This document shows, piece by piece, positions 1,044 to 62,411 of a stretch of DNA of 64,000 bases. The first letter of the stretch is position 1. The number at the start of each line of letters is the position of its first letter. Origin of the DNA: a virus (Duplodnaviria; Caudoviricetes); the IMG/VR virus record IMGVR_UViG_2773857985_000001, positions 17,890-81,889 of that record; one strand, written 5' to 3'. The translations under genes were made by a program, and so were the position numbers. The notes below the pieces were generated by a model. The model ran no database searches and was not told the DNA's origin. It worked only from the letters and a program-made list of their open reading frames with translations.

Positions 1044-1117
1044 GATGTCTCCAGACATGCGTGAAGCCCGCGCACGGGCGGGTGGTGAAAGGGGCCTGGC
1101 GCGGGCCGAACAGCCGG

Positions 1118-1836: not shown

Positions 1837-1851
1837 CAGTACCTCCCTCGG

Positions 1852-2223: not shown

Positions 2224-2636
2224 CAGGAGTACCCCCAGCCCGGTTCGAACTCGTCGGCGAAGCCCATGTCGTCGATCGGCCACGTTGGCGACGGATCAGC
2301 CGTCTCCGGAGTCGGATCGATCGTGAACGCCCCACCCCGGCCCGCCAGCGACTTCAGCGCCGACTTGTCGGCCTTCGTCAGGTACAGGCCGCCAGACCCC
2401 TGGGGGCGCTGCACCGACATCGGGCCGATCGTCTCGTAGCTCACCTGCTGCGGGTTGACGTAGGCGCGGCCCGCCACCGACAGGACGACCGCCTCCGCAC
2501 CCTCAGGGAGCGGTTTCACGACCGTCTGACACAGCGACGCCGCCGTCGAGAGCAGCAGGTCAGCGCGCGCACCGTCGATCTCACCCATGCCCAGGTATAG
2601 GCCGAGCTGCTCGGCGGTCGGAGGGACGAATGCCAT
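2223..2636 (-). CDS. Head-to-tail adaptor
   Basis: RAYVNPQQVSYETIGPMS...GGLYLT motif typical of actinophage adaptors. Confidence 0.85.
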   Translation of the reverse strand: MAFVPPTAEQLGLYLGMGEIDGARADLLLSTAASLCQTVVKPLPEGAEAVVLSVAGRAYVNPQQVSYETIGPMSVQRPQGSGGLYLTKADKSALKSLAGRGGAFTIDPTPETADPSPTWPIDDMGFADEFEPGWGYS

Positions 2637-2646
2637 AACACCCTCC

Positions 2647-3678: not shown

Positions 3679-4637
3679 CAGGCGCTACCGGACGGCGTGC
3701 CCGTGTACTTGACGAACGCGTCGACGTCACCGAGGACGAAGCCGTAGTACGCCTCCGCCAGGATCAGCACCAGGTTCTCCTGGAACGCCGAGTGGACGCC
3801 GCCCTCCTCGTCGACGTAGGTGGCCTGGTCGGAGATCCGCACCGTGATGTCCATGCCCACGCCGTAGGCGGCCTGCGACCAGTCGCCGCCAATCGCCCGC
3901 AGCCCCGAGTCCACCGATGCCGACTGCCGGCGCTGCTTGCCCGACACGGACCGCGAGTAGGCGAGCGGCTCACCGATCAGCGTGCCCGCCGCCGCCATGT
4001 TCGTGCCCGGCGTCTGCGTGTCCACGAGGATCGGACGGCCCGTGGTGTCCGTCGCCAGCAGCAGCGACGGCTTCAGCCGGTGGTCCGCCACGGTGCCGGT
4101 GTAGTCCCAGTCGGAGTCGACGACCTCGGCCATGCCGTTGACGAAGTCGGCCCAGATGCCGCCCTGCGCCTGGGTGGCCGTGCCCAGCGCCACCGAGTTG
4201 GTGGTGGCGGCGAGGTACTCGGTGAACGGGCCTGCCGCGCCCTTCATGGTCTTGCCGTGGATCGTCGCGTGGTCGAAGGCGCGGGCGAACGCGGTCGGCA
4301 GATCCTTCTGCAGCTGGTCGTACAGGCCGCCCGCGTTGGTCTTCGCGACCTCCATGGCGACCGGGATGAGCACGGCGACCTTCTTCGCCTGCATCTGCTT
4401 GACGTCCACGCCGCCGGTCGACAGGGGCTTCTTGGCCGCCTGGCCGACCCAGTCGGCGACCGGGACGTCCATCGGGATCGGCACCGAAGTGGTGGCGTCC
4501 AGGGCGAGCGGCGCCGGGCGTGCCAGCTGCATGACCGCGGACGCTTCGACGGACTTCTCGAAGATCGGCGCGGTGATCGTGCGGGGCAGGAGCGCGCCGT
4601 CCACGTTGGACAGCGTCAGGGGGGCGGTGACCGCCAT
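3678..4637 (-). CDS. Major capsid protein (HK97 fold)
   Basis: 319 aa; ADWVGQ...KP, KKVAVLIPV, FQENLVLILAEAYYGF; follows scaffold. Confidence 0.95.
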   Translation of the reverse strand: MAVTAPLTLSNVDGALLPRTITAPIFEKSVEASAVMQLARPAPLALDATTSVPIPMDVPVADWVGQAAKKPLSTGGVDVKQMQAKKVAVLIPVAMEVAKTNAGGLYDQLQKDLPTAFARAFDHATIHGKTMKGAAGPFTEYLAATTNSVALGTATQAQGGIWADFVNGMAEVVDSDWDYTGTVADHRLKPSLLLATDTTGRPILVDTQTPGTNMAAAGTLIGEPLAYSRSVSGKQRRQSASVDSGLRAIGGDWSQAAYGVGMDITVRISDQATYVDEEGGVHSAFQENLVLILAEAYYGFVLGDVDAFVKYTGTPSGSA

Positions 4638-4656
4638 GATGTCTCTTCTCCCGAAG

Positions 4657-5307
4657 CTACGTGAGCTTCGAACTCAGCCACCCGGCGAACTCGTCGCGAG
4701 GGTTGGGGGCCTGCTTCTTGTTGGCACCGGATGCCTGTGTGCGGTCCGGTGCGGGTCGCCGCGGGCCCTCCGGGGGCTGGGTCTTCGCCCAGTGCGGCTT
4801 GCGCTCCAACAGCGCCTGGAGATCCGCCTCGATGGCGGACTCGTTGATGTCGCCCGAGTCGTCGATGTACGAGTCCAGATCGAGCTCGCCGAACGCGTCA
4901 GCCGGATCGGCGAACGCCGCCCGGCCCTCGGTGGCCGTGCCGGCGAGCGCCTGCACCTGGCTGCGGACCAGTCGCTGCCGGGTCTTCGCGATCTGATCCT
5001 GCGCGGCAGTGAGCTGCTCGTTGAGGCGTTCGGACTCGGAGAGTTCCGCGTCCTTGCGCTTCTGCAGCTCGGCGAGCAGAGGCTCCTGCTCCTTCAGGCG
5101 CTTGCGGAGGTTCGCGGCCTCTGAGTTCGCCTTCCGGATCTTCGCCTCGGCCTGCTTCCGGTCGAACGGCTTCTCCTCGCTGCTGGTGTCCGCCTCCTGG
5201 GCGGTCTCCTGCTGCTCGGTGCCGCTCTCCTCGGTGGCCGTCTCGTCGACGGTCTCCTCAGTGCCGGAGTCGGTCTGCTGCTCGGTCGTCTCGGTCTCTT
5301 CGGGCAT
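4657..5307 (-). CDS. Scaffolding protein
   Basis: Acidic N-terminus, KANSEAANLRKRLKE coiled coil, LLERKPHWA; position before capsid. Confidence 0.9.
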   Translation of the reverse strand: MPEETETTEQQTDSGTEETVDETATEESGTEQQETAQEADTSSEEKPFDRKQAEAKIRKANSEAANLRKRLKEQEPLLAELQKRKDAELSESERLNEQLTAAQDQIAKTRQRLVRSQVQALAGTATEGRAAFADPADAFGELDLDSYIDDSGDINESAIEADLQALLERKPHWAKTQPPEGPRRPAPDRTQASGANKKQAPNPRDEFAGWLSSKLT

Positions 5308-5369
5308 GACGAATCGGCCCTCCAGGGGCTGTCGAAAAGGGGAAGGCCGCCACCAGGGCGACCCGTTGA

Positions 5370-6185
5370 TCAGTGAGATCCGGGAAGCGGATACTCGTCG
5401 TGCTCCGCCAGCGCACGCCTGAACAGGCGCAACTGGTCTCCCGGATGACCTTGCGCGTACTCGCGATAGATCTCATCCCAGCGAGCCGCATGCGGCGACA
5501 ACTGGAAGCGCTGGCCGCGGAAGACCGGCAGGATTCCGCAGTGGCAGTTGTTGTGGAACTTCACCACCGACGCGTCACCTGAGAACCGGTCATTCGCATC
5601 CCGACCTGCGGTTTCTGCCGTGGCATAGACCGACCCGCGGGATGCCATGAGCTTGCAGAAGGAGCAGGCGCCGAGCGCTGCCACCCGGGCATACGCCACA
5701 GCCTGCCGATCCTGCCGGACCGCCTGCCGGACCGTCTCCCGGCCCACATCAGCCACAAGACGCTGTGTGGCCATGTCTGCTTTTACGAACGCGGCCTCCA
5801 GTCGAACATCGAGGGGTTCCAGCTGTGCGGGCGTCGCCACGTCGGCGTCCCGGTCCCACACGTCCTTCGTGGCCCAGCGCATCGACGCATCCACCTGCTC
5901 GCCCGGCGGCGGATCAGCCAACCGTGCCGTGAACCCACCCGGCACATCAGCGTCTGCGCGCTGCCCGTCGTAAAAGTCCGCGGCAAGAGCCGCCGACACC
6001 TCCGCATACTGGCCCACCACAACGGCCACCGCCTCAATCCACGGCGGCACCGTCGCCTGCAACCGGCGCGGATTGATCAGCCGCCGCAGCGTTCGCAAAT
6101 CCCGCAACAGCAGCGCTGTCAGGCCCTGCTGTGCAGACCGCCAACGCGCCGCGCCAGGCGAACTATCCGAGGTCGTCGACGCCAA
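5370..6185 (-). CDS. MuF-like minor capsid / capsid maturation protein
   Basis: YARV...ACSFCKLMASRG...FHNNCHC motif; between portal and scaffold. Confidence 0.8.
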   Translation of the reverse strand: MASTTSDSSPGAARWRSAQQGLTALLLRDLRTLRRLINPRRLQATVPPWIEAVAVVVGQYAEVSAALAADFYDGQRADADVPGGFTARLADPPPGEQVDASMRWATKDVWDRDADVATPAQLEPLDVRLEAAFVKADMATQRLVADVGRETVRQAVRQDRQAVAYARVAALGACSFCKLMASRGSVYATAETAGRDANDRFSGDASVVKFHNNCHCGILPVFRGQRFQLSPHAARWDEIYREYAQGHPGDQLRLFRRALAEHDEYPLPGSH

Positions 6186-7632
6186 CGTCGGCCTCCGACG
6201 GCTCCGTACTCGCCGTAGACGAGCCAGACCGAATCTCAGCGAAACGGTCCAGCAGTGCGCTGCTGGCCGCCCGGCCGACGCCGCGGCGCCGGTCCGCAGC
6301 GATCCGCTGCCGCTGCGGCTCCGTGAACCCAGCCATCTCCAGGGTGACGTCGGAGTCCGCGGGCAGTACCCCGGCCTGCACCAGCTTGACCGTGGCGTCC
6401 ACCTGGGCCGCTACCGTCGGTGTCGCAGGGTTCCGCCACACCGTCTCGATGCGGCGGGTCTTGTCCGGGGGTTCGCCGTCTCGGATCCACAGGGCGAGCC
6501 GCATGGCCTGCTGCCACCCGGCGCCGAACCGGCGGATACGCCGTTCGGCCTTCTTGACCTGCCGGTTGTCGGCGAAGCGGATCGCGTCCGCGGAGGCGGG
6601 GTTGTCGCTGCTGTAGCCGAGGACGTGCGGGGCCACCGACATCTGCGACGCCATGATCCTGGCGTACAGATCGATGATCTTCGTCATGCCGGTCGGATCG
6701 TGCGCAGCGAACTGGCCGACGTCCGGCACGTTGCCGTCCTCGTCCCGCTCCAACGCGAGCACACGACCGATGTACGTCTCCCAGGCGCTCTTAGCCGTAC
6801 CGTCCGCGTCCTGAAACGCCGACTCCGACGCGCCCAGAATGTAGCGCTGCGGGGCGCCGAAGAACTCGGCAGCCACCTCCATACCCATCAGCCGGCGGCA
6901 CGCCGCATCCGTGATCGACATAACCTCAGGAGTGATCTCCGACTTGCCGACCCGGTCTGCGGTCCGCTGCCGGTTCGCCAGACGCACGACCGGCACGACG
7001 CCGAGCCCGTGCATGTCCCGGTCGACGACCTCCCAGCCGCCAGACGCCGACGGCAGACACATCACCGTCTGATCCGGCAGATACAAGACCAGCATCCGCT
7101 CCTCAGGACCCGCCTCGATGTACGAGTCGGCGGCGCACTCTCGGAGCGCAGCCGTACCCATGCGCATGCGGGCATCCCACATCAGCGTCATGTCCAACGG
7201 CGACTCGGCGGTGATCAACGGCGGGCACTCGTCCGTTCCGCAACCACCCGACCCGACCGCCAGATACTCCCGGCCGTACACGAACGCGTCCAGGTGAGCC
7301 AGCGACGACTCGTCGAACAGGTCATTCGCCTCGGCGATCTCCGTCAGCTCACTGGAATTCGAGCCATCTGCCCACCGGAACGCCTCCAAGTCCAGGCGCT
7401 CCTCCAGCGACTCCACACCCACCCGCGGCCAGCCAATCACCGTATGCAGCCCTTTGAGCTGCGGCGGGATGGAGATGCCGAGGTCGCGGATCAGTTGCTC
7501 GCCGTTGAAGTAGGCGTCCCGGAGTTGCAGCGCGTACCGGTCCCGCAGCATGTCAGCCCGCAGCAGGTTGATCAGCGCCTGCTCCTCGTCCGAGAGATAC
7601 ACCAGCGGCAACTCAGGAATGGACAGGGTCAT
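6163..7632 (-). CDS. Portal protein (SPP1 gp6-like)
   Basis: ATG 7632; LGISIPPQL, GWPRVGV, GKSEIT, AEFFGAPQRYILG, NPASADAIR, WRNPATPT. Confidence 0.95.
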   Translation of the reverse strand: MTLSIPELPLVYLSDEEQALINLLRADMLRDRYALQLRDAYFNGEQLIRDLGISIPPQLKGLHTVIGWPRVGVESLEERLDLEAFRWADGSNSSELTEIAEANDLFDESSLAHLDAFVYGREYLAVGSGGCGTDECPPLITAESPLDMTLMWDARMRMGTAALRECAADSYIEAGPEERMLVLYLPDQTVMCLPSASGGWEVVDRDMHGLGVVPVVRLANRQRTADRVGKSEITPEVMSITDAACRRLMGMEVAAEFFGAPQRYILGASESAFQDADGTAKSAWETYIGRVLALERDEDGNVPDVGQFAAHDPTGMTKIIDLYARIMASQMSVAPHVLGYSSDNPASADAIRFADNRQVKKAERRIRRFGAGWQQAMRLALWIRDGEPPDKTRRIETVWRNPATPTVAAQVDATVKLVQAGVLPADSDVTLEMAGFTEPQRQRIAADRRRGVGRAASSALLDRFAEIRSGSSTASTEPSEADVGVDDLG

Positions 7633-9362
7633 CGCAGCACCACAACCCTCCCCTTGCCCGTAGCCTTCGAGCGCTTGGCCCACGCGGGCGAGTTCATGAC
7701 CATGCGACGCAGCATCCGGGCCCCGATCGCGCACACCACAAGGTCGATCTTTCGCGCCGACTCACGGTGCTCCTTGCCGATCGTGTAACCCCATGCGTTC
7801 GTCCGGCGTCGGGCGTTCGCGACGTGCTGTCGCAGAACCTTGTGTCCGTCATGCGGCACCTGCCGTTCCAAAACGTCCCGGTAGAAGCGGTCCACGGCCT
7901 CCGTGAACACCTGCTGGCGCCGACGGTCACCCATGTCCCACATCACCGCGTGCTGCCCATGCCCAGACGGCACTGCCTTCAGCTTCAGCCGCTTCCCATA
8001 CCGCTGAGCCCACGCGTCGACATAGCCATCCCAGTAGCGTTCTCCATCCGCATCGTCATATCCAGCGCCAGGGTCCGCGAAGAACGCCAGCGGCTTGTAC
8101 CGGGCGAACACCTGGTCCACCACGCCGTCGGCCTCCTCTCGCGGCACCCGATAGGGCACGTCCGATGGCCAGTTCGCCGGCCGCTGCCAGACCCCCAAAG
8201 TCCTCACGAACCCGTCTGACATCCGGCAGCCGACCAAGCCCGTAGCGTCGTCTGACTTGGAGCCATCGAAGAACAGGACGATCCCGTCGCCCTCTTCCAA
8301 AGCGAGGCCCTCATGCGGATTGGCATCCCATTCGTATGGCGCCAAGTAGGCGTCCTCGGCCGCCGCGATCTGGTTGAACCAGAACCGGCGCGACCTGCTG
8401 GGCGGGTTACGGATGTCGAGGATCGACGCCTTGAGCCGGTCCACGTCCAGCCACACCGAATCCCCGCGGACCGCCTTCAGCGTCGGCACGATCCACGCCT
8501 CGGTCAGCTTGGCCTCGGCCGGAGCCTCCAGCGAGTCGTAGAACAGTCCGGTGTCCGCCGCGCGCCCGGCCTCCGCCGACTCGAACGCCTCCCGGGTCCG
8601 CTCGGCGACGCTGTCCTCGCCGGGCTCGTAGGCGTTCGTGTTCGCCAGCGTCCGCGCTTGGCCATCCGCCGACTTGGTGGCGTTACGCTCGATTACCGCC
8701 GCCATCTCGTGCCCCTGATTCGACTCCACCCAGTGGTGCGTCTCCCCCAGCGAAACGAACGTCGGTCGGCCACCTTCCAGAGCACGCGGCGAGGACGTGA
8801 CCGCCTCGATCCGGGCCCGTCCCTTGTCGGCGTAGATGATCTCCTTGCCGAGGTCGATCCGGAACTCCTCGAGGGCCCGCTTAGTGAAGATGCTCGGGAA
8901 GAGCGTCATCGTGTTCCGCGTCTGGTCCTGCGACACCGCCGCGATCTGCACCCAGGCCGCCGGATGCTGCGTGCCGAGCGGCTGCCCCGCCCGGACACCC
9001 CACTCGTTGCCCTCGTCCGCAACCCCAGCGAGCCGGCACGGGCCGACGAACTCGAACGCCGACCACGTGGCGATCAGTGGGTCCTTGCCCCAGCCCTTCA
9101 GCCGCTGGATCACGCCGTCCCGCCAAAGGAACCGGTTCGTCTCCGGGTCCATCGCGTACCACCACAAGGTCAGGCGAGCTTGCTCGGGCGTGTACTGCCA
9201 GGCCTTCCCGACGTAGTGCTGCAGGTATGTCTTGGTCCAGGCGAGGCACTGCCAGCCCAGCGTGTACTCGGGCAGGATGAACTTTCCATCTGGGCCGCGC
9301 TTCCACGTCGGGCCGAGCGTGAAGGGTTCGACGACGTCGGGGACCTGCTCCTCAGCCTCCAT
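7629..9362 (-). CDS. Terminase large subunit
   Basis: Walker A QRLKGWGKDP, AAVSQDQT, FFDGSKSDDAT nuclease motif, KIDLVV. Confidence 0.96.
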   Translation of the reverse strand: MEAEEQVPDVVEPFTLGPTWKRGPDGKFILPEYTLGWQCLAWTKTYLQHYVGKAWQYTPEQARLTLWWYAMDPETNRFLWRDGVIQRLKGWGKDPLIATWSAFEFVGPCRLAGVADEGNEWGVRAGQPLGTQHPAAWVQIAAVSQDQTRNTMTLFPSIFTKRALEEFRIDLGKEIIYADKGRARIEAVTSSPRALEGGRPTFVSLGETHHWVESNQGHEMAAVIERNATKSADGQARTLANTNAYEPGEDSVAERTREAFESAEAGRAADTGLFYDSLEAPAEAKLTEAWIVPTLKAVRGDSVWLDVDRLKASILDIRNPPSRSRRFWFNQIAAAEDAYLAPYEWDANPHEGLALEEGDGIVLFFDGSKSDDATGLVGCRMSDGFVRTLGVWQRPANWPSDVPYRVPREEADGVVDQVFARYKPLAFFADPGAGYDDADGERYWDGYVDAWAQRYGKRLKLKAVPSGHGQHAVMWDMGDRRRQQVFTEAVDRFYRDVLERQVPHDGHKVLRQHVANARRRTNAWGYTIGKEHRESARKIDLVVCAIGARMLRRMVMNSPAWAKRSKATGKGRVVVLR

Positions 9363-10124: not shown

Positions 10125-10760
10125 TCAGAGCGAGGCGATCAAACCGGCCGCGTCAGGCAGCTCGGCAAGCTCAAGAGGGGTACCAGGAACCCGGTCACCC
10201 ACGATCATGTAGCGGCGATCCGAGTACACCTCGACCGCCAACTCCCCGCGGCGGATCCGCCGGCCGTGCGACACCGCACCCCGGAACCACAAGTGCAGGC
10301 CTCGGCCGGAACGGCCGCGTTCCATGTACGTCGCAGGCAGCCGATCCAGGATGGCCTGCGCCCACGGCAACACCCGACCGCCCTCGACAGCGTGGTCCAG
10401 GTCTACAACGACGATCCCGTCGCCGGCCGTCAGCACGAAGCCAACACCCTCACCAGCCGACGCCCTCGCCGCCGCCGAGTAGTTCGACCACGACGACGGG
10501 TCATCCACCGAAGCGAAGCGGCCGTCGCCCCGCAGCGGCACCTTCCGCGACGAGTACCGAACCCACCGCGCCTTCGTCCGCAACTCGACCGGCACCCGCG
10601 CCACCTGCTCCGACACCACCCGCTGCCGCTCCAGACGGTGACGCTCGCGGTACGCGGCCTGCCTGCACGCCGACGAGCAGAACCGCGCATCAGCCCGAGC
10701 CGTCAACGGCATCGGACCCACGCAGCGCTCGCACTCAGTGCGGCAGGTCGTCGAGGTCAT
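10125..10760 (-). CDS. Stand-alone AEP/Prim-Pol primase domain with N-terminal Zn ribbon
   Basis: CxxC...FCSSACRQAAYR; DLDH (DxD), SGRGLHLW, EVYSDRRY motifs. Confidence 0.8.
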   Translation of the reverse strand: MTSTTCRTECERCVGPMPLTARADARFCSSACRQAAYRERHRLERQRVVSEQVARVPVELRTKARWVRYSSRKVPLRGDGRFASVDDPSSWSNYSAAARASAGEGVGFVLTAGDGIVVVDLDHAVEGGRVLPWAQAILDRLPATYMERGRSGRGLHLWFRGAVSHGRRIRRGELAVEVYSDRRYMIVGDRVPGTPLELAELPDAAGLIASL

Positions 10761-25141: not shown

Positions 25142-27846
25142 TCAGGTGGCCATGTCCCGGTACTCGTCGGCCATGTCGCCCAGCCCCGCGAGGCACAGTG
25201 CCGCGCACTGCAGGAGTACCTCACGGCGTTGGGACTGCTCGTCGGCGGCTTCGGAGATCAGGCGGGCGGCGGATTTGAGGTCGTGGTGTCCGACGATCCC
25301 GGCCACCTCCAGATGGGCGGCGACCGCACCCAACTGGGCGATGAACCCGGCCGCGGTGGTGGCGGGGGCGGGTTCGTGGGCGAGGTAGGCGACGGTGTGC
25401 GCATGCTGCTGGACGAGACCGTCGACAGTGAACGCGGCGGGCATGGGGGTCACCGGCCCGCGTTGTCGATGAGCCACCGGCCGTATGCGCGGTCGGCGTC
25501 GGCGTGGATGCCTGTCCGGTCGCTTCCGGCGGCGACGGCGGCTTCTACGGCGGGCTGCACGGTGCCGCGGTAGAAGTCGCCGGTGCGCTCGCCGGCCCGC
25601 TCCTTCTTGTTCAAGTCGACGAGGGCGGCGACCGCCTTGCGTTCGAGCTGCTGCCTGCTGGCCATGGGTCTCCTACTGGTAGGCGGGTCCGTCGTATTCG
25701 ACGGCGGTGATCTGGGCGGACGGGTTCTCCTGCTGGGTGCGGAGGACGTCGGTGACGAGACTGTCGATGCTGTTCGTGGAGTTGAACGACAGCAACTTGC
25801 CGGTGCGCCGGTCGTACAGCCGGTAGTGCAGGTTGGTGTGCGTCTGACGGCGGACGGGCAGGGGCTTGCCGTTCCAGGTGTCGGGCATGGTCAGTTCCAC
25901 TCCCAGGTCTCGTTGGCGGTGTGGGCGCGGCGGGCGGATGCGGCGAGGAGCGTGGCGAGCTGCGCCCATTCCCGGTCCATGGCCCGGCTGTTGGCGGCCT
26001 TGGCGAGGAGGGCGGCGACCCGTCCGGCCTGCTGCGGCGGGGTGTGGACGGGCGTGTACAGCTTGCCGTCGAAGAGGTAGGCGACCTCCCGCCACTCGCT
26101 GCTGGTGAGTGCGTGGGCGAGGTGCTGGCCGAGGTTGGCGATGGTCGTCGCGGACCTGGTGGACGGCACGCCGTGGCTGATGCTGACGCCCATCAGAGGC
26201 CCTTCCTTGCGGCCTTCCGGAACCTCTTCGGCAACTGCTCCTCGGCGTCGATGACGGCCTGGTTGAGGCGCTGGTACTCGGGCGTTTCGTGGGTGATTCC
26301 GGCGGCGGCTTCACGGGCGGTGCTCTCGGCGAGGGCGGCCGACGCCTTGTGGTAGTCGGCGATCAGACGGTTCTCTTCGGCGTACACGTCGAGTTCTTCA
26401 CGGGTGGGCTTGGACATGATGGGTCTCCTACTTGTTGTGGGTGTGGGCGTGTCGGGTGGCGCGGTCGAAGGCGGCGAGCACGGGTGCGGCGGTTCGCTGC
26501 TGGGCGTTCCAGCTGGGGATCGTCTCGGCCGCGGGGAACTGGTCTTGGATGGCGTCGAGGAGGGCCACGCACGCGTCGTGCGCGGCATCCCGGTCGCCGC
26601 GGGATTCGAGGCGGATCGCTTGGATGGGGCAGACGGCGCCCGCTTCGTCGCGGACGGCGTCCCGGCACCAGCCCGCGGTCTCGATCCGAACGCGGGCCCG
26701 GTGGAGGAGGTCGGCGACGGGCGTCCGGTACGGGGACGGCGAGGCGGCCGGTGCGGGCAGGGGTGCTTCGGTGATGTGCGGAACCTGCCCGGCGCCGGGC
26801 AGGTGCGCGGTGTTGACCTCGAACTCGACCGCGGCTTCGTCGAGGCGGGCGGTCATGGCGGCGCCGGTCAGGGCGAGTCGGGCGTCCAGGTCGAGGACTG
26901 GCGGCGCCTGCCGGGTTGCGGGCGCGCGGGTGGTCGTGGGCATGATGGGGATCTCTCCGTCGATCTTCTGGTGGGCGGGTGAGACCGGGGCGCCCCTGGT
27001 CGCTGCCAGGCATTCGAGGGGCGCCCCGGGCGGAGCTACAGGTCTTCGCCGAAGCGGACGGTCATGGTGGCCTCGTGGAGTTCGGCAGCCTCGCTGCCGT
27101 CGGTGGCGCGGGTGTTGAAGCGGGCCGTGACCTCGCGGATGATCCGGTCCGTGGTGGCGCGGTCGCCGCGCCGCTTCGCCGCCACGTAGTCCTGCACGGA
27201 CTGGTGCTTGTACTCGGTGGGCATTGCGGTCACTCCCCCGTTCCGAAGGGGACGCGCGCGTCGGCCTGACCCAGTTCGATGATCTCGTCGCCGGTGGCCT
27301 GCCCGGCGTCGTAGCGACTGGTGACGTCGGCTGTGATGCGGTCGGCCGCTGCTCGGTCGCCGCGCTGCTTGGCGTCGACCAGGTCACGGACGGACTGGTG
27401 GGTGTACTGCACGGTGATCTCCTTCGGGTTGGGGTGGGTCAGATGCGCCAGCCGCCGAGGCGGCGACGCGTCTTCGGGTTGGACGTCTGCGCGGCCTGCT
27501 TCTCCAGACCCCGCAACTCGGCCTCGTCCAAGATCCCCTCGTAGTTGTCCGAGCCCATCGGGCCCGCAACCTGCGGGGCCGGGTCGGCGATGTTCCGCAT
27601 GCCGCGCGGCGGCGCGTCGAACACCGGGCCGCGGGTCTGGCACAGCGTCACCGCGCTGTACCCGGACTCCGTGCACGGGCTCCCCGTGAACGGAAGCCGG
27701 GACGTGAACCGGTACTCGCCGTACAGGTGCGCGTCCTCGTAGGGCGCGGCCCGCCGGCTGATGTCGTACACGACGTAGTACGACTTCCCAAGCTCCACAT
27801 CGCGGGCGAACTTCTTCGCCTGGCTGGCACTCCACGACTTCGACAT
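25142..27846 (-). other. Distal part of transfer-associated operon: hypothetical ORFs 25142-25453, 25450-25665, 25673-25888, 25891-26193, 26193-26417, 26428-26943 (DUF6197-like), 27036-27233, 27230-27412, 27439-27846
   Basis: Coupled ORFs with GGAG RBSs downstream of traB and the repeat array. Confidence 0.65.
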
Positions 27847-27885
27847 AGATGATCTCCGTTTCCGGTATGGGATGGTTTGCTCTCG

Positions 27886-28046
27886 CTGCTCAGGACTGCT
27901 CAGCGGGAGAAAGTGCAGGTCGGGTCTGCTCAGCCGCCTGATCAGGCGCTGCTCAGAGCAGACGCTGAGCAGGTCGTGAGCAGCAGCCTGAGCAGCTGTG
28001 ACCTGCGGGTTTGTGGCCTGATCAGGGCTGAGCAGGCCCTGATCAG
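27886..28046. repeat. clt-like array of 8-bp repeats (putative TraB recognition sequences)
   Basis: CTGCTCAG x4 (27886, 27896, 27926, 27949), CTGAGCAG x3 (27965, 27988, 28028), GTGAGCAG (27976), CTGATCAG x3 (27938, 28018, 28039); immediately 3' of traB. Confidence 0.8.
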
Positions 28047-28068
28047 GGGTACATACTTCGCATAGCGG

Positions 28069-30324
28069 TCACAGCAGGTGGCGGAGCCGATCACGCTTGA
28101 AGCCGCGCGGATTCTTCTCCTCGCCGATCGGACCCAGCGTGATCGGCGACCCAGCACCCGCCTGCTTCATCAGGGCCTTGAACGCGACGGCATCCATGTC
28201 GCCGTAGGCATCCGGGTCGTACTCCTGCAGCGCGGCAAGAAGCGGCTCGGTGATCATCCGGTCGACGTCCGCCTTCTCCATCACGTCGACCGCATCCTCG
28301 ACCGCAGCCCGTGCCGGCCCGTCCGTCAGCTCCGAGCCGGCGGGCGGCTCTGCGTCGCACAGGCGCAGCAGTTGCTCCCAGGTGAGAAGCTTGACGGGCG
28401 CCGGCTTCTTGATCTGGTCGTCCTTGTCGTACTCGGGCTCGCAGTACTCGGGGAGGTCGACGTTCTTCATCGCGTCGAGGCTGTCCTGGTCGGGCTCGAC
28501 CAGGCCGGCGTCGCACCTCTCCTGCGCCAGCTTGCGCAGCGTGGCGGAGGGCGTCTCGTGGACGGCGTACTCGATCGGCTCGTCCGGTCGGCCGGGCACG
28601 CCCTGGATGTAGACGTGGCCAGCGTCCTTAGGGTCGGTGTCGGTGGCGGGAGACAGCTTGTGTGGCATCCAGCCCTCGGCGACTGCCCCGTCTCCGAAGA
28701 CGGCGCGGGTGTCGCCGACCTTGCAGGGCCCGACCGCCTTGAAGGCGATCATCTGGGCGATGTTCTCGCCGAGGTACAGCTTGGTGCCGCCCTGCGAAGC
28801 GATGATCAGCGTGACGGCCTCCTTGCGGCCGACCAGCAGCAGATCGAAGGCCAGCTTCTTCGCCAGCTCGGATCCCTTGGGGAACTCGTCGAAGATGATC
28901 GTGAAGTGCGGGTGCTCCTTACTGACCTTCCACTTCTTGCCCATGCCGAGCTTCGCCCGCAGCCGGGCGCGACCCTTGGACAGCATCAGGAAGAACAGCA
29001 GGACTGCTTCGATCTGCTCGTGGCTGCGCCCGGTGACCCGGACGGCGTCGTGGAGGTCCTCCAGACCGTCGCCGTGGGGGTCGAGGTCGATGGTGATGTT
29101 GTCGTAGCAGGCGGTGGTGATCTCACCGATGGCCTGCAGCAGGCCGGTCTTGCCGCCGCCTGACGCCGCAACGACGAGCCCCATGACCCCAGCGAACGCG
29201 GCGTCGAGGGGTTCGCCGCCCACAGAGGATCCGAGACGGCTCTTGCCCGTGATGGAGATCGACTTGGGGGCGCGATGGGGCAGCCCGGGGGCGGTGGCGA
29301 ACGGGTCTCCCTCGACGAGGCGCAGGACCGCGCACGCCCGTCGCTCCAGGATGGGCTGGGGCCGGACACCGTTGGCTTTCAGGTCGAAGCGGGTCTCGAG
29401 GTCCCCGCTCTTCGCGATGATCGCTTCGGGGGTGCCTTCGCCGACGCGGACGACGCACTGCCAGCCCCACGGCTGCCGCTGCACATCGGCGACCTCGACG
29501 ATCGGCACGTTCTCGGCGCGGGCGGCGAGGAGGACGCATTCAGCGAGCTGCTGCGGCGTGGACACGTTCCTGAGCGGGAACGGCTTGGCGCCTTCGTCGA
29601 GCTGCTCGACGTTCATGACGACGTGCGATCCGACGCTCATCGCTCCCCCGGCCTGCGTCGGGTCCGCCAGGAACGTGGCGGGCAGGCTGACCGGGGCCTG
29701 ACCGAAAGGGGCCCCCACCTCCTTGGCCTCTTCGACGTGCGGGCGGGCCAGGAACCACCAGCCGAAGCCGCCGGCCGGGATCGACAGCAGCAGGAGGGCG
29801 GGTTCGGCGGCGATGCCGTGCAGGTAGCCGTAGCCTCCCGCGAGGACGGCGGCTACGCGGGTGGCCTTCTTCGTCCAGCGGGCACGGTCCAGTTCCCGGT
29901 TGGTGGGCGGCATGACGGCGACCGCGGGTCCTTCCGCAGCGCGGGTTTCGACGCGGGCCTGGAGCGCGGCGAGCTCGCCCTTGAGCCGCTCGATCTGGGG
30001 GCTGGTCTCCTCGCCCTGCCGGGCGGCGTCGATGCGGGCCTGTGCGAGGCGGCTGTTGACTCGGCCGACCTGGCGCAGGAGTTCGTCATCTTGGCGCTGC
30101 GCCTGGCGACGCTTGCTGTCGACGACCTGTTCGGCGAGCTTCTGGTCGTCGATGTCGGCGGTGGCGAACCAGCCGGCGAGGCGCTGCCGGACGTTCTGCT
30201 TCTGCTCACCGTAGGCGGCCTTGGCCTGCAGCTTCACGGTGTCAATCCGCCGCTTACGGGGGATGGTGGGCGGGTTGACGGGCATGGGCGGGATCTGCTC
30301 GAAGGGTTCGGTCTCGGTGGCCAC
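28069..30324 (-). CDS. traB: TraB-type FtsK/SpoIIIE conjugal dsDNA translocase
   Basis: Two N-proximal TM helices; Walker A ASGGGKT; Walker B IIFDEFP; GRKEAVTLIIASQ; C-terminal winged-helix-like domain ending NPRGF. Confidence 0.85.
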   Translation of the reverse strand: MATETEPFEQIPPMPVNPPTIPRKRRIDTVKLQAKAAYGEQKQNVRQRLAGWFATADIDDQKLAEQVVDSKRRQAQRQDDELLRQVGRVNSRLAQARIDAARQGEETSPQIERLKGELAALQARVETRAAEGPAVAVMPPTNRELDRARWTKKATRVAAVLAGGYGYLHGIAAEPALLLLSIPAGGFGWWFLARPHVEEAKEVGAPFGQAPVSLPATFLADPTQAGGAMSVGSHVVMNVEQLDEGAKPFPLRNVSTPQQLAECVLLAARAENVPIVEVADVQRQPWGWQCVVRVGEGTPEAIIAKSGDLETRFDLKANGVRPQPILERRACAVLRLVEGDPFATAPGLPHRAPKSISITGKSRLGSSVGGEPLDAAFAGVMGLVVAASGGGKTGLLQAIGEITTACYDNITIDLDPHGDGLEDLHDAVRVTGRSHEQIEAVLLFFLMLSKGRARLRAKLGMGKKWKVSKEHPHFTIIFDEFPKGSELAKKLAFDLLLVGRKEAVTLIIASQGGTKLYLGENIAQMIAFKAVGPCKVGDTRAVFGDGAVAEGWMPHKLSPATDTDPKDAGHVYIQGVPGRPDEPIEYAVHETPSATLRKLAQERCDAGLVEPDQDSLDAMKNVDLPEYCEPEYDKDDQIKKPAPVKLLTWEQLLRLCDAEPPAGSELTDGPARAAVEDAVDVMEKADVDRMITEPLLAALQEYDPDAYGDMDAVAFKALMKQAGAGSPITLGPIGEEKNPRGFKRDRLRHLL

Positions 30325-31000: not shown

Positions 31001-32377
31001 TTAGTTGGCGTTCGGGCGAGTGCTCTTGACTGAGTTCTGAGCTGTGATGGCGGCCTGCTTCCGGGCGGCTCCGACGTACCTCGGGGTGTCGCCAGGACGG
31101 CGTGTCGCGCGCGTCTTCAGGACCCGATTCGGACCGGGGGGCATTTGAGCAGCACGCTGCGCGTTTGTGGTCTTGCTGAGGGTGCTCACGGGGGTGCCAG
31201 TGAGGGCTGACTGGACGCGCTTCTCGGCCTTGCTGCGGGCGGTGATGGACTCGATGGACTCGCCCGGCTCGCAGCCCTGAATGTTCCGGTAGGCGCGCGC
31301 CCAGACCTTCTCGGTCACGGTCACTTCGCCGACCGCGGCAGCGATCTTCTCGGCCTCGTCCCACACCTCGGGAAACTCCTCCGCGCGGGCACCGGCAAGG
31401 ATCTCGGCCGCCTCCGCCGCAGCCTCTTCGGCGGCCTTCTTCTCGGCGGCCCGCCGCTTCTCCTCCGCGGCCTTCTCGGCGGCGATCCGCTTGGCCTCCT
31501 TCTCGGCCGCCTTCCGCTCTCCGCGGGTGGGCACGCCGTCGCGCTTGCGGATGCGGCCGTGCTCGTGGAGGTCCCACATGCCGGGGCCGGCGACGGATGC
31601 GAGGGCGGTGCCGAACGCGGTGGCTGCGTCGAACGCGCCGAGGCCGTGGACGGCGTTGATGGTGGCGGCGGTGAGGGCGCCGGCCCAGGCGACGAGCCGG
31701 TAGTGCCACTGCGGGCGGCCGTCGGTGACGGCGGCTGCGGCGCCGACGAGAGCGACGAGGGCGATGACCTCGATGAAGATCGGGGCGACGAGGAGGTACT
31801 TGGCGTTCGGGTCCCAGAACGCGGCCATCTGCACGGGCAGGGCGACGGTGGCGCACAGGGCGTAGAAGCCGAGGGCGACGCGGCGCCACCGCTTGCTGGA
31901 CTTGGCGACGACCGCCGCCTTGTCGGTCTCTGTCTGCTGCTGCTCGGCGTCCTCGCGGGCGGCGCGCTCGCGGGCCCGGTCGGCGTCGTCGCGGCGCCGC
32001 TGGTGTTCGGCGATCCGCGCCTCCGAGGCGGCCTGCTCCTCGGCGGCTTTGCGTTCGGCACGGTCGTTGGCGAGGCGGGCCTTGCGGGCGTCCTCCTCCG
32101 CCTTGGCGCGGATGGCTTCGGCTTCGGCCTCGGCCTTGATCCGCCGCTCTTCCTTGGCGGCTTCGGCGGCGACGCGCCGTTCCTCAGCCTCGGCCCACGC
32201 CCTGGCGCGCGCTACCTCAACGTCGGCGGCTGTGGGCTCGGGGTTGGCCGGCTCGGGTTCGGGGTTGCGCTGCTCCTCGGCGGGCTCCGGCTCTGTGGCG
32301 ACGGGCTGCCAGTCCCCCAGTACTTGCAGGGCCGGCGGCCGGGCGTGGCCGTTCACCTTCGGCGGGCTGGCAGTCAT
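31001..32377 (-). CDS. SpdB2/DUF2637-like spread protein
   Basis: N-terminal Ala/Glu/Arg coiled coil, four TM helices, second coiled coil and basic C-terminus; two genes upstream of traB. Confidence 0.7.
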   Translation of the reverse strand: MTASPPKVNGHARPPALQVLGDWQPVATEPEPAEEQRNPEPEPANPEPTAADVEVARARAWAEAEERRVAAEAAKEERRIKAEAEAEAIRAKAEEDARKARLANDRAERKAAEEQAASEARIAEHQRRRDDADRARERAAREDAEQQQTETDKAAVVAKSSKRWRRVALGFYALCATVALPVQMAAFWDPNAKYLLVAPIFIEVIALVALVGAAAAVTDGRPQWHYRLVAWAGALTAATINAVHGLGAFDAATAFGTALASVAGPGMWDLHEHGRIRKRDGVPTRGERKAAEKEAKRIAAEKAAEEKRRAAEKKAAEEAAAEAAEILAGARAEEFPEVWDEAEKIAAAVGEVTVTEKVWARAYRNIQGCEPGESIESITARSKAEKRVQSALTGTPVSTLSKTTNAQRAAQMPPGPNRVLKTRATRRPGDTPRYVGAARKQAAITAQNSVKSTRPNAN

Positions 32378-35355: not shown

Positions 35356-35994
35356 GTGGCAGACGTCCACCAGTGGACCGGGGAGAAAGCCGCCCGGCTC
35401 CAAGACGCATTCGAAATGACCCAGGAAGAGTTCGCCGGAAAGCTCGGCGTCTCGGTACGCAGCGTCGCCTCATGGCGCGCCAACCCGAGCATGGTGCCGC
35501 AGCCGGAAACGCAACGCATCCTGGACACGACCTTGGGATTGGCAGGTGATGCGGTGCGCCGGCGGTTCATTCACCTGGCGCGGGCAGCGGCTCCCCAGCC
35601 GGCAGCGCAGGCGTTGCGGGTGGCGATCGCCGTCGTCCGCCGCGGCGGCAACGTGCTGCTCGTGTGCAGGCAGGACGGCGACGACATCACCTGGCAATTC
35701 CCGGCCGGAATCGTCAAGCCCGGCGGGAACGCGCCGAAAGTGGCGGTGCGGGAAACGCTGGACGAGACCGGCGTCCACTGCATGGTCCGCGAACACCTGG
35801 GCGAACGCCTGCATCCGGTGACGCGCGCATTCTGCGACTACTTCATTTGCGACTACGTGCACGGTGAGGCAGTCAATGGGGATGCCTCCGAGAACGTTGC
35901 CGTGGCTTGGGCTCCGATAGCGGGGCTCTCTCGTTTCATCCCCACCGACCGGATCTATCCGCCGATCTTGACCGCCTTGGAGGCGACCGTATGA
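35356..35994 (+). CDS. XRE-HTH/Nudix fusion protein
   Basis: MTQEEFAGKLGVSVRSVASW plus WQFPAGIVKPGGNAPKVAVRETLDETG. Confidence 0.9.
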   Translation: MADVHQWTGEKAARLQDAFEMTQEEFAGKLGVSVRSVASWRANPSMVPQPETQRILDTTLGLAGDAVRRRFIHLARAAAPQPAAQALRVAIAVVRRGGNVLLVCRQDGDDITWQFPAGIVKPGGNAPKVAVRETLDETGVHCMVREHLGERLHPVTRAFCDYFICDYVHGEAVNGDASENVAVAWAPIAGLSRFIPTDRIYPPILTALEATV

Positions 35995-36401
35995 CCGAGA
36001 CCATCACCGACAAGCCGGGCATTTCTGCCGCGATCATCGTCCGGGACGGCCGGGTGCTGATGGTGCGCCGCGCCGTGAAGGAGGGCGAGCTGATGTGGCA
36101 GTTCCCCGCGGGTGGCATCGAGGCCGGCGAGTCGCCGGAGGAGGCGGCGGTGCGGGAGACGCTGGAGGAGACGGCGCTCACGGTGAAGGCGGTGCGGCTG
36201 CTGGGGCAGCGGGTGCATCCGAAGACGGGCCGGGAGATGTCGTACACGGCGTGCGATGTCGTGGATGGCGAGGCTCGGGTGGCGGACGACGAGGAGCTGG
36301 ACGCGGTCGCCTGGGTCACCCATGGCGAGATCGCCGACTACGTGCCCTACGGCCTGTTCGAGCCCGTCCAGGAGTACCTGGATGACGTCCTGCCGCACTG
36401 A
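35991..36401 (+). CDS. Nudix hydrolase (pSAM2 Pif-like context)
   Basis: WQFPAGGIEAGESPEEAAVRETLEETAL Nudix box; ATGA overlap. Confidence 0.92.
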   Translation: MTETITDKPGISAAIIVRDGRVLMVRRAVKEGELMWQFPAGGIEAGESPEEAAVRETLEETALTVKAVRLLGQRVHPKTGREMSYTACDVVDGEARVADDEELDAVAWVTHGEIADYVPYGLFEPVQEYLDDVLPH

Positions 36402-43403: not shown

Positions 43404-44390
43404 TCAAGCGGAACCGGCAGGCAGCATCGGGTCGTCACGCCGCGTGTAGGGCTGCGGGACGGGGCCCGGCGAGTGAAACCAGGTGACGGGGACCGCGTCG
43501 GGCGTGGTCTCGGCGGCGGCCGTGACCGTCCATCCGCCGTCCGGACGCCGGGTGAACAGGGCGTGGCCGCAGTCGAGCCAGTAGTAGGCGTTCCGCAGAT
43601 CCGCAGTGGTGTCATCGAGCAGGTTGGGCTGCCCGCAGACGCGCCGGTAGTACTGGTCGAGCGCCTCAAGGGCCTGCCGCTTGTCGCCGGTGAGGGCGAT
43701 CGCAGCACCGGTCTCACCGAGGGAGGCGACGAGGACGCCGTCGAAGCAGTCCTCCATGTCGTTCGGGCCGGGGGTGAAGACGCGGCCCGGGGTGAGGGCG
43801 TCGTGGGTGGTGTTGGTCATCGGGGTCTCCTGGGCGGGTAGGGTCCGGCGGAGACCCGGGCGCGGTTCGAGCGCGCCCGGGTCGCCGCGTTCACGGGATG
43901 GGGTGGGTCGCCGCGAGGCAGGCCGCGACGATCACGACGGTGGGCGTCGAGCCGGGGAACTCGATGACCGCGCCGTTCGGGCAGTCCGGGCCGGAGTCGT
44001 CGGACTCGTTGGTCACGGCCCAAACGGCGCCGGACGGGTGCCGCAGGATGCTCAGCGGCATGTCCTCGTCGGCGATCCATCCGGCCGCCTCCAGTGCCTC
44101 CAGGACGTCGAGGCGGCCGTACCAATCCCCGGACGCGGGCGGGGTGATGATCAGGTGCAGGTCGGTCATTGCTTCTCCTTCGGGTTGGCTGGTCACAGCG
44201 ACCAGAGGCTGGGCTGGTGGTCGGTGAGGTCGAGTTCGGTCTGTCCGGGTACGTGGTGGTCGGGTGGTGGCGCGGCCCGCACGGTGGCCGACGGGCGGGC
44301 GGTAGGGGCGAGTCGGCGGGCGCAGACGGGGCCGAGGCCGGTGGGTGACGGGCGGCGTAGGCGCCGGCCGCACGCCGCGCAGCGGGACAT
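43404..44390 (-). other. Hypothetical ORFs 43404-43820, 43891-44169 and Zn-ribbon DUF6011-like 44193-44390
   Basis: RCAACGRRL....GLGPVC in the last ORF; RBSs present. Confidence 0.6.
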
Positions 44391-46099
44391 CAGGCCGCCT
44401 CGGCGAGATCCGCGACGTCTTCGTGCCGGGTGAGTTCCTCCCCGGTGATCGCTTCGACGAGGGCGCAGACGAGGACTTCGGCGGCGTTCGGGGTAACGGC
44501 ATTGCCGTATTGACGCACTTTCTCCCGCTTGTTGCCAAGAACGACGTAACTGTCCGCGAAGGACATCGCGCGGCCGATCTCGTGCGGCTCGAGCATCCGG
44601 AACAGCACGTCGTCGATGTCGACCTCACCCCGGACGAGGGCGTACCGGTCGCGGGTCGTCAGCGCGCCGATCGGCTCGTTCACGGACCGCGGGGCGCCGT
44701 TGCCGTAGTACGGGACGAGCATGTGCTCCCAGGTGAGGAGCGACTGGTGCCCGGCCGTCGTCATCGTCCGGAACGGCTCATCGACGGGCGTGCACATCTG
44801 CGCGGCGTTCCCGCGCGGGGTGTTGTTCCGCATGACCATCGCAGGCATGGCCGGAGCGACGAGACCATGGTGGTTCCCGGACGCCGTGACCGTGGCGAGG
44901 GACTCGCCGACGGACCGGGCCACGCTGCCGCCACCGCGGAGCTCGGCGATGAACGGCAGCCACGCCAGCCCCGTCTCATTCCGGGTCGTCATGGCCCGCA
45001 GCGGGGCGTGCGCCGACGCGGCGCTCTTCCCGTCCCGGCCCTCCACGGGGACCATCAGCGGCGGCACCATCAGCGCGTCGTTCTCGCGGGTGGTCCGCGC
45101 GGCCATCGGCTCCCCGACGGACACGGCCGCGTCCCGCCAGGTACCGCCGGCCGGGACCATCATCGGCACCGGGCGGGCGAACTTCTTCAACCCGGCCTCG
45201 ATCCGCTTCAGGGTCTTGTCCGCGAGCGGCTTGGCCCGGTCCCCGATCCGCTGCCCAGGGATGGACCAGTCGATCGCCGCAGCGGCCGGCAGGGCCTCCG
45301 GCTCCACGACCTGGTTGCGGCAGGAGGTGTTCGGGCACCGGTAGACGTACTGCTGCCGGTAGCGGCCCATGTCCCGCTTCGGGTCCTTGAACACCTGCAT
45401 CGCCTGCACGAACGCGTCGCATCCCGAGCACCAGGCTCGCGGGCGCAACCACTTGTCCCAGTCCGGCGTCCGGCCCAGGCTCTCGTGCCAGTAGCCGACG
45501 TACAGGCGGTCACGGGACTGCGGCGCCGCGTGCACCGACCTGGGGTTCGCGTGCATCGAGTTGAGAGCGATGATCCGGGAGCGGTAGCCGAGCTTGTGGA
45601 TCTCGCCGATCCACCGGTCCCACTGATCCCAGGCACGCACGTCGGTGACGTTCTCGACGATGCCCGCCTTCACCAGCCCGCCGCGCTCCTGCACGCCCCG
45701 CAGGTACAGCGGGACCTCCTCCATCAGCGCGCGGGACTCCTCCTCGGCGGACGGCTCGTCGTCGTCCTCGGCGAGCGCGAGCAGGTCCAGGAGGCTGCCC
45801 TGCATGGCGCCGGCGAAGTCCCGCTTCTTCCCCTTCGCCACCGACCAGTTCGTGCACTCGGGCGACGCCCAGAAGATGTCGGTGACGGGCCAGTCCCACA
45901 CCGGGGCCTTCCGGATGTCGCCCTGGTAGTGCGACGTGGTCGGGAAGTTCTCGGCGTGCGACTCGATCGCGAGCTTCCAGTGGTTCGCGGCGCGCTCCAC
46001 CCGGACACCGGGGACGGCGTGGACGCCCTGGCTGCTGCCTCCGGCTCCGCAGAACCAGTCCATGACGGTGAGTGCGTCGTTGTCGTGCTGAGACATCAT
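44390..46099 (-). CDS. DNA (cytosine-5) methyltransferase
   Basis: DWFCGAGG (motif I), ASPECT (IV), ENV (VI), QSRDRLY (VIII), QYGNAV (X). Confidence 0.93.
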   Translation of the reverse strand: MMSQHDNDALTVMDWFCGAGGSSQGVHAVPGVRVERAANHWKLAIESHAENFPTTSHYQGDIRKAPVWDWPVTDIFWASPECTNWSVAKGKKRDFAGAMQGSLLDLLALAEDDDEPSAEEESRALMEEVPLYLRGVQERGGLVKAGIVENVTDVRAWDQWDRWIGEIHKLGYRSRIIALNSMHANPRSVHAAPQSRDRLYVGYWHESLGRTPDWDKWLRPRAWCSGCDAFVQAMQVFKDPKRDMGRYRQQYVYRCPNTSCRNQVVEPEALPAAAAIDWSIPGQRIGDRAKPLADKTLKRIEAGLKKFARPVPMMVPAGGTWRDAAVSVGEPMAARTTRENDALMVPPLMVPVEGRDGKSAASAHAPLRAMTTRNETGLAWLPFIAELRGGGSVARSVGESLATVTASGNHHGLVAPAMPAMVMRNNTPRGNAAQMCTPVDEPFRTMTTAGHQSLLTWEHMLVPYYGNGAPRSVNEPIGALTTRDRYALVRGEVDIDDVLFRMLEPHEIGRAMSFADSYVVLGNKREKVRQYGNAVTPNAAEVLVCALVEAITGEELTRHEDVADLAEAA

Positions 46100-47187
46100 G
46101 CGGCGTCCTTCCGGTAAGTGGTGGTGCTGGTGTTGCCGTCGATGACTCGGAGCAGGGGCCGATGGGGTCCGCGGGTTTCGAAGCCGACGAGGGCGGCTTC
46201 GAGTTCGGCGCGGTGTGCGGCCTGCTCCTCCGGGGTCCAGGAGGGCCGCGAAGGGGCCTCTCGCGGCCTTTCGGGGCGCGAGCGCCCGAACGTGCCCGTA
46301 GGGACGGCTTCGGCCATCAGGCGCTCGTAGGGGGTCATGCGGCGGTCGCCTCGGCTTCCTGGTAGCGGCGGGCGTGGACGGTGCGGCGGGCGCGGCCGTC
46401 CTCGTGACACGGGGTGGCCAGCCCGACCTGGCACTGCGGGCAGCAGGCCGTGGCCTGAGCCCAGTCCGACACCCGCTGCGGGTGCGGCTGACTGAGGACC
46501 GTGTTCCGGGTACGGACCCGGCACGGCCGATGCGCGGCGGCCCCACAGTGCGGGCACGGCACGGACCGGGCCGGGTGCTGCTTCGCACGGAGGACGTGGC
46601 GCAGGGACTCCGGCATCTGGGCGGCAGGCTGGCGAGTGGTCATCGACGGCCCCCGTTCACGGCACGGGCGATCAGCAGGGCGTGGTTGCCGTCACACCAG
46701 GTGCAGGTGTCGCCGCCGCGGTCCTCGGAGCCGAGCATGGCCTGGCAGCCCAGCCAGTCGGCCACCTGCTCCATGACCTCGGGGTCCTGCGGCGCGTCGG
46801 GCTGGGTACGCAGCCGCTGGGCCGCGTTGCTGAACTCGATCTCGGGCTTCACTGGTTCTCCTCTGGCGGGCAGTTGCCGCAGTCGCACGGCTGGTCGGGG
46901 AAGTGCTCGGTGTTGCGGTAGTGGCGGACGGCCGCATCCCAGGCGGCCTTCGGGTAGCTCCACTCCGGTGGTGGACCCGGCGGCGAACTTCCCGTTGGCC
47001 AGGCGCCCGGACGGTGACCTGGCGGGCTCGGGGCCGCCGCCGGCTTGGCGGGCTCGGTGCGGCGTGCGCGGCCGATGTCGATCTGCGCCCGCATCAGCGC
47101 CCGAAGCTCAGCCCGGCCGCCGGCACGGACCGCCCGCATGTCCTCAACCTGGATGCCGTCGTCGTCCGGGATCTGCGCGTCACTCAC
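46096..47187 (-). other. Small ORFs 46096-46338, 46335-46643 (double Zn finger), 46640-46852, 46849-47187
   Basis: CPHCGA..C...H..R repeats; coupled genes. Confidence 0.6.
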
Positions 47188-61594: not shown

Positions 61595-61761
61595 CGAACC
61601 CATGGCCATAGGAGTTCGGTGAGCAAGGGCGCACTCACGGCGCGCGAGCGCAACGAAGGGCCAACGAGGCAACAAAAATGCGCCCCCATCACCGATCAAT
61701 CCTGGTCAATTGGGGGAATCGATGGGTGCGTGTTGCCAACCGGTGCGGCATGATGAAGGCC

Positions 61762-62304: not shown

Positions 62305-62411
62305 CTATCTGCACAGTTCGTTGCGCACGATCCCTCCACATTTCACTCTCTGGTGTGGTCTCATATCCGGACACCACAAAGGGGGGCACCCGTGGTGGTC
62401 TTGGGGGACCT

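Follow-up and report, generated by a model that had tools for sequence, protein, structure and literature searches.

The window, that is, the whole stretch of 64,000 nucleotides that was analyzed, contains a compact array of short repeats lying directly behind a gene for an FtsK/SpoIIIE/TraB-like ATPase (hereafter the pump). Pump gene and array lie within a tailed Streptomyces prophage of roughly 80 kb, a setting unmentioned in the earlier note on this DNA. The genes and features at the locus and in the surrounding prophage are as follows (window coordinates, with strand where given).

Immediately beyond the left edge of the window: more tail genes and an ORF of 1565 aa taken as a tape-measure gene
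456-9362: terminase, portal, capsid, and tail-tube genes
2647-3678: glycosyltransferase, flanked by the capsid gene on one side and the head-tail genes on the other
10125-10760: Prim-Pol gene, approximately 17 kb from the array
27439..27846, minus strand: 135-aa ORF (P0002), directly downstream of the pump and array
27847..27885, minus strand: leader of the gene after the array, an A/C-rich stretch followed by GGAG and ATG (read from aligned loci)
27886..28046: the repeat array
28069..30324, minus strand: FtsK/SpoIIIE/TraB-like ATPase (P0001), 751 aa, with a match to phrog_12531
28072..28317, minus strand: C-terminal domain of the pump (approximately residues 670-751), modelled as a winged helix, with the codon of T729 at 28138-28140
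31001..32377, minus strand: membrane protein of 458 aa upstream of the pump, with hydrophobic segments at residues 167-220
35356-36401: two overlapping NUDIX-domain ORFs
44390-46588: C5 cytosine methylase
61678-62304: HTH regulator
62654-64000: tyrosine integrase
Also beyond the head and tail genes: a PD-(D/E)XK nuclease gene

A related portal gene was identified 11-22 kb downstream and in the same orientation in four of the five complete genomes holding a pump relative, while the portal query found none in the fifth. An exact direct repeat of 18 bp has one copy at window positions 62374-62391 and the other, near 274704 of C1, approximately 21.9 kb beyond the left edge of the window; approximately 0.001 such repeats were expected by chance over the regions compared. 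The two copies are candidate att sites for an element of approximately 84 kb, and with these ends the tyrosine integrase at 62654-64000 would be excluded from it. Near the left end, a resolvase-domain ORF adjoins one of 437 aa, and the two may together represent a large serine recombinase. Cargo-like genes of the prophage include Ku, a GmrSD-type nuclease domain, the C5 cytosine methylase, the glycosyltransferase, and the two NUDIX-domain ORFs. Neither the window nor its 20-kb flanks yielded a tRNA.

The pump protein P0001 carries the Walker A and B motifs of a P-loop motor, AASGGGKT (residues 386-393) and FDEF (near residues 477-480), matched the family phrog_12531 ("FtsK/SpoIIIE-like protein") with an E-value of 3.7e-66, and in tblastn searches displayed 29-46% identity to Streptomyces plasmids and phages, some of these matches being annotated as DNA translocase FtsK. 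P0001 itself gave no Pfam, NCBIfam, or PDB sequence match. When PF01580 was searched directly, the complete protein had no match at E <= 0.01 and its last 500 residues had none at E <= 1, and eight of 29 aligned relatives were matched by this family with a best E-value of 2e-6. Residues 165-195, considered as a possible N-terminal membrane anchor, are moderately hydrophobic (best 19-aa windows at KD 1.45-1.48, below the threshold of 1.6). From its sequence, P0001 was called a TraB-like pump of the pFP1 type. The membrane protein encoded at 31001-32377 is weakly similar to the DUF2637 protein encoded ahead of tra in pFP1 (27% identity across 169 aa, E-value of 6e-5 in a single comparison), and this likeness suggests that membrane protein, pump, and array may form a cassette in that order.

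The array fills the 222-bp gap between the pump stop codon and the start of the 27439-27846 minus-strand ORF, beginning 23 nt past the stop codon. Its non-coding status, claimed from the sequence in the earlier note, was supported by codon-position GC, and two short mechanical ORFs overlap the region. The product of the downstream 135-aa ORF gave no family match in Pfam, NCBIfam, and phrog searches; proteins with P0002-like N-termini occur downstream of the array in many related loci, although not in all, and the downstream gene varies among loci. An A/C-rich stretch reading roughly AACAAACCAYCACAAAC was present just upstream of the ribosome binding site after the array in loci L001-L017, even before differing genes.

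A word search of the window recovered all eleven of the 8-mers that had been claimed for the array, each at its given coordinate, together with the claimed mirrored heptamers GCAGGTC at 27915 and GACCTGC at 28000 (hereafter the brackets) and the reversal of word orientation near 27960, which was located between the words at 27949 and 27965. Four exact copies of CTGCTCAG lie on the plus strand (27886, 27896, 27926, and 27949), three positions carry its exact reverse complement CTGAGCAG (27965, 27988, and 28028), the variant GTGAGCAG occurs once (27976), and the palindromic word CTGATCAG is found in three exact copies (27938, 28018, and 28039). An additional copy with one mismatch, CAGAGCAG at 27954, overlaps the copy at 27949 and brings the array to approximately 12 sites, ten of which are exact words. 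Words sit around and between the brackets, those on the proximal side (nearest the pump) pointing one way and those on the distal side the other, and their spacing inside each block is 10-12 bp, or about one helical turn. From the distal to the proximal end, the parts of the array are as follows.

27886..27903: distal outer block, two words (CTGCTCAG at 27886 and 27896, plus strand)
27915..27921: distal bracket, in gene sense (T)GACCTGC, 85 bp from the proximal bracket
27926..27995: inner mirrored block, on the plus strand with 27926, 27938, and 27949 reading one way and 27965, 27976, and 27988 the other, and including the one-mismatch copy at 27954 between the two orientations
28000..28006: proximal bracket, in gene sense GCAGGTC(A), 65 nt past the first base of the stop codon
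28018..28046: three-word proximal outer block, closest to the pump stop codon (CTGATCAG at 28018, CTGAGCAG at 28028, CTGATCAG at 28039)

Counts of the words in the window and in the host genome put their clustering in the array far above chance. CTGMTCAG was present 17 times on both strands of the window compared to 4.5 +/- 2.7 in 100 shuffles, none of which reached 17, and beyond 27886-28046 it occurred at three places in the window (14661, 49204, and 55621). The count in the host chromosome that had been proposed as a check gave 165, 182, and 158 copies of the three words (505) in the 8.58-Mb genome; the 165 and 182 obtained for CTGCTCAG are near the expectation of approximately 140 per strand estimated from base composition. 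The array was the sole place in the genome with at least four copies per 200 bp, having ten exact copies within 154 bp. Bracket pairs 60-130 bp apart were likewise at chance level in the own genome (44 compared to approximately 54 expected), and among these 44 only the pair of the array encloses mirrored repeats; from the genome bracket frequencies, the chance of a bracket pair was estimated at approximately 0.002 per locus. Neither word nor bracket displayed strand skew in the host contigs, per-contig counts being approximately equal on both strands, and the idea of the bracket as a polar word of the host was dropped for this reason.

Conservation of the array was evaluated in 57 unique loci, this window counted, that remained after removal of 14 duplicates from loci gathered by protein query (8), by a 16-row alignment query (33), and from a search of 401 Streptomyces genomes, 30 of which (own genome included) had a match at E <= 1e-30. 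The array occupied the same place in 8/8 of the first homologous loci. An exact GCAGGTC...GACCTGC pair within 330 bp past the pump stop codon was identified in 41 of the 57 loci and a pair allowing one mismatch in 46, one of them doubtful, while the remaining 11 had no bracket pair even at one mismatch, several of these retaining mirrored repeats and a lone distal bracket. The distal bracket was retained although the proximal one is absent in L023, L029, L032, L089, and L090. Within the close clade, the layout was present in 35 of 36 loci; the exception, L082, is without brackets and has mirrored CCCGGAC/GTCCGGG-type words, a different center, and a different tail sequence. The adjacency of pump gene and array thereby survived the comparison that the earlier note had named as the one that could overturn it, namely a search for homologous traB genes without an adjacent array.

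Read in gene sense, the conserved layout consists of GCAGGTCA, forward words, reverse words, and TGACCTGC. The complete shared order begins with the stop codon, which up to three outer words may follow before the proximal bracket. Between the two brackets stand three or four forward words and then reverse words, and beyond the distal bracket come two to three further reverse words, the A/C-rich leader with GGAG, and the next gene. Over the 41 loci, the bracket consensus was cCGCAGGTCAcaG for the proximal and CcCTGACCTGCac for the distal copy, and the bracket spacing was 85 bp in 23 loci, 86 in six, 97 in three, 106 in three, 107 in two, and 74, 87, 88, and 89 in one each, so that the main classes differ by approximately one helical turn, equivalent to one extra word per arm. 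The brackets stay constant while the enclosed word varies by lineage, the words found being CTGCTCAG, CTGCTCGG, CTGCTA.., GGTGCTCG, CGTGACG, CTCTAC, and CCGGAAC.

The same layout was identified after the tra/FtsK-like genes of the conjugative plasmid pFP1, of a 53-kb Kitasatospora plasmid, and of a 46-kb Streptomyces plasmid, and two 24-kb linear plasmids have mirrored arrays with the distal bracket only. No array and no bracket words were found after the FtsK-like gene of the 133-kb lytic phage Wofford, the one lytic phage examined of 89 phage records with a pump match, and the two PF01580-type TraB-like genes of the own genome are without a mirrored array. Portal genes 78% identical to that of the window were observed in the plasmid records NZ_CP108705.1 (88 kb; L043 and L044) and NZ_CP109578.1 (92 kb). 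The 88-kb record is circular and looks like a phage-plasmid of the pZL12/pSLE1 kind, with genes for all virion parts alongside ParAB and a type III PKS-like gene (PhlD); neither a pump relative nor an array was found in it.

The C-terminal domain of the pump was modelled with confidence as a winged helix. The AlphaFold model of the last 105 residues has a pLDDT of 85.6 and the order helix-strand-helix-helix-wing; a longer model, of 500 aa, was of low quality (pLDDT 55) and served for its tail only. Structure matches to the tail were weak and generic, mainly to winged-helix domains (Foldseek E >= 0.2; VIA Z 5-6.8), with no Foldseek match at E <= 0.001 and with FtsK gamma absent among the structure matches listed. 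Thirty-six loci were classed by their consensus word into 20 with ..TCAG, eight with ..TCG, four of CTGCTA-type, and four "odd" loci. With the odd loci left out, residue 729 was the only perfectly associated column of the 105 (normalized mutual information 1.00), bearing in mind that the classes were assigned by hand from consensus strings and that this residue had been noticed before the column scan; the next-best tail column, K720, with which the third helix ends, reached 0.61. Residue 729 is the T of ..SPITLG.., on the strand following the third helix. Loci with ..TCAG words carry T (19) or A (1) at this position, those with ..TCG words carry S, P, or G (8), and those with CTGCTA-type words carry Q (4).

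On a tree built from the motor domain only, the word class changes at least nine times, with the classes in many separate places. Independent pairs agreed in approximately 6/6 cases (median p 0.03, odd rows left out) and the link between Q and CTGCTA held in 4/4; with the odd loci counted as non-TCA, the sign test was not significant (median p 0.125). The co-variation of repeat and presumed reader that the earlier note had proposed examining is supported in that word class follows tail residue 729, with an exception in the four odd loci (L003, L010, L059, and L066), all of which have T729. In L003 the word reads CTGATCGG and in the other three it is degenerate. All four have intact brackets with degenerate or shifted words, the last 37 pump residues of L003 and L010 are nearly identical to those of the window, and the arrays of these loci may be decaying sites or reflect looser specificity. 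Tail domain and array lie less than 300 bp apart, so their joint exchange by recombination could give co-variation without contact; as an internal control, other equally linked tail columns fail to track the word.

Gene exchange in Streptomyces proceeds mainly by TraB-type conjugation, and to our knowledge few of the clt sites on which it acts have been defined so far. The recognition word of pSVH1 TraB is reportedly GACCCGGA. A winged-helix tail of a hexameric double-stranded DNA pump that reads oriented 8-bp words is also known from FtsK gamma with KOPS and from SpoIIIE with SRS; KOPS and SRS words are scattered and strand-skewed over the chromosome, whereas the sites described here are all packed into 161 bp, and neither word nor bracket is skewed in the host contigs. 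An identical layout stands in pFP1 (NC_006912.1), where a bracket is followed by CTCTAC words in forward orientation, a palindrome at the center, words in reverse orientation, a second bracket at a spacing of 107, and two more reverse words. This plasmid also encodes a DUF2637 membrane protein upstream of its tra gene, and differs in the word itself and in being without the proximal outer block.

In the accessible portions of the literature on characterized sites, TraB is described as binding 8-bp clt repeats via a C-terminal winged helix (PMC4447253, PMC3583192). The clt of pWTY27, the characterized site to which the proposed docking site comes nearest, is given there as 16 bp of traA and 159 bp downstream, containing direct and inverted repeats, showing two TraA footprints, and being needed in cis for transfer (PMC3583192). 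It resembles the present array in abutting the 3' end of a tra gene, in its similar size, and in having several 7-bp direct repeats along with inverted repeats, and differs in its words (TGACACC and CCCGCCC) and in lying on a plasmid and not a prophage, a comparison made by description only. In the genome contigs, at least 120 stretches with three phased copies of the pWTY27 word were counted, and the 11 actinomycete stretches among the matches listed were simple tandem repeats, none of them clt-like. The pSVH1 system shares one FtsK-like pump with a C-terminal winged helix and repeated 8-bp words on its own element; its repeats are described as direct in the text available (PMC4447253, PMC4170104), and the pump studied here belongs to a pFP1-type clade beyond the reach of PF01580. 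The earlier note characterized known clt loci as mostly direct 8-bp repeats, which is only roughly right: inverted repeats are mentioned for the clt of pIJ101, pJV1, and pWTY27 in the consulted part of PMC3583192.

Among plasmid-phages, pZL12 is described in the excerpted source as a characterized Streptomyces example with pSLE1 as its relative (PMC4487206), and its transfer is stated to require a tra gene (PMC3583192, in part). Both resemble the present element in combining a tailed-phage genome with plasmid-type functions and, as far as the same excerpts go, differ in replicating as ParAB plasmids (PMC4487206), the element here being integrated. Clt sites and the repeats recognized by TraB are established knowledge, and inverted repeats within clt loci are on record (PMC3583192, in the portion available). 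The bracket pair, the quantized spacing, and the reach of the layout across word lineages were not found in the literature searched, a body of text outside which the primary pSVH1, pFP1, and pZL12 papers and their supplements lie, and may be in print. The brackets were also compared to the sps palindrome of SpdA2 and this identification was rejected, because sps, a palindrome of 12 bp, goes with spdA genes and neither bracket word appears in the available text of PMC4170104.

The interpretation favored here, with a probability of roughly 0.7, is that the adjacent TraB-like pump docks on the array, which would be a site of the clt type. The "clt-like TraB site" of the earlier note is to this extent supported by comparison, through its place beside the pump, the plasmid layouts, and the tracking of residue 729, and it has the standing of a predicted site. 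Each winged-helix tail of the pump subunits would read one word, residue 729 with its neighbors would help set which word is read, and, in line with a suggestion of the earlier note, the mirrored halves would permit pump assemblies to load in either or both orientations. The pump would then carry the double-stranded element from one hyphal compartment or cell to another, in the way that TraB transports Streptomyces plasmids; the DNA moved here would be the prophage genome, either excised or in replication. The point at which a docking site is strained is that a reader with lineage-changing specificity leaves the invariant brackets unexplained.

Other explanations for the array involve base pairing, replication, or regulation. 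The earlier note had suggested that the near-palindromic array could form a cruciform, and this was evaluated in the 23 loci with 85-bp spacing by comparing each column with its mirror partner. Complementarity was approximately 90-99% in the word columns and 10-35%, near chance, in most of the spacer columns, and overall it reached 62% in the true register compared to 17-41% in every shifted register. Complementary words with non-complementary spacers argue for protein sites over a hairpin, and by this comparison the conserved feature is the mirrored placement of sites and not pairing along a stem; cruciform formation is thus not favored. More broadly, a structural DNA or RNA element selected for pairing, be it a cruciform, a terminator, or an mRNA-processing hairpin, would fit the near-palindromic layout and the predicted single-stranded DNA fold of the array (-56.5 kcal/mol compared to -34.9 +/- 3.4 in shuffles, z -6.3). 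Any mirrored repeats would, however, be expected to give a strong fold, the predicted one differs from a simple symmetric hairpin, and no terminator-like site was found on the strand of the pump gene, the sole terminator-like match (27856-27875; 0.5 expected in shuffles) being on the other strand. With the spacer columns mostly unpaired, such an element is the least probable of the explanations weighed here. The same fold can be cited for a replication origin with iterons like the RepAM-bound 8-bp repeat hairpin of pMEA300, and hairpin-capable arrays of 8-bp repeats are described as the putative ori for RepAM in the part of the source available (PMC2440964). Against this stand the expectation of a strong fold from any mirrored repeats, the lack of an adjoining replication gene (the flanks are the pump and the 135-aa ORF, and Prim-Pol is approximately 17 kb off), and the pump gene as the constant neighbor across loci, which leave an origin quite improbable.

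A role as the operator or regulatory region of the downstream operon, with a repressor, an activator, or the pump tail binding words and brackets, is unlikely as well, even though a co-oriented gene always follows the array, introduced by a recurring leader and ribosome binding site, and the distal bracket is the one kept in the five loci where the proximal is missing. The downstream gene varies while the array holds its place relative to the pump stop codon, no sigma-70-like promoter was found in 27300-28600, twelve phased sites are many for such a region, and the word class tracks the pump tail rather than a neighboring regulator. A further proposal extends the docking site and addresses its brackets directly, and taken whole it is rather unlikely, if less so than an operator. 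According to this proposal, brackets placed an integral number of helical turns apart would, with the mirrored arms, assemble two pump rings in opposite orientations, much as double hexamers form at the origins of viral replication. Reading of the brackets would fall either to a conserved feature of the tail, its nearly invariant NPRG wing motif, or to a host factor, and the variable words would supply the private address of each element. If true, a phage genome could spread through the mycelium or into a mating partner without virions.

For the docking site as such, the comparisons point to a widespread and precisely built class of arrays, with mirrored words, invariant brackets, and spacing steps of approximately one helical turn, that follows pFP1-type pump genes in plasmids and prophages. 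The class lends itself to direct predictions on which tail residue would select which base of the word, on whether the brackets are required, and on whether a tailed prophage could travel as naked double-stranded DNA.
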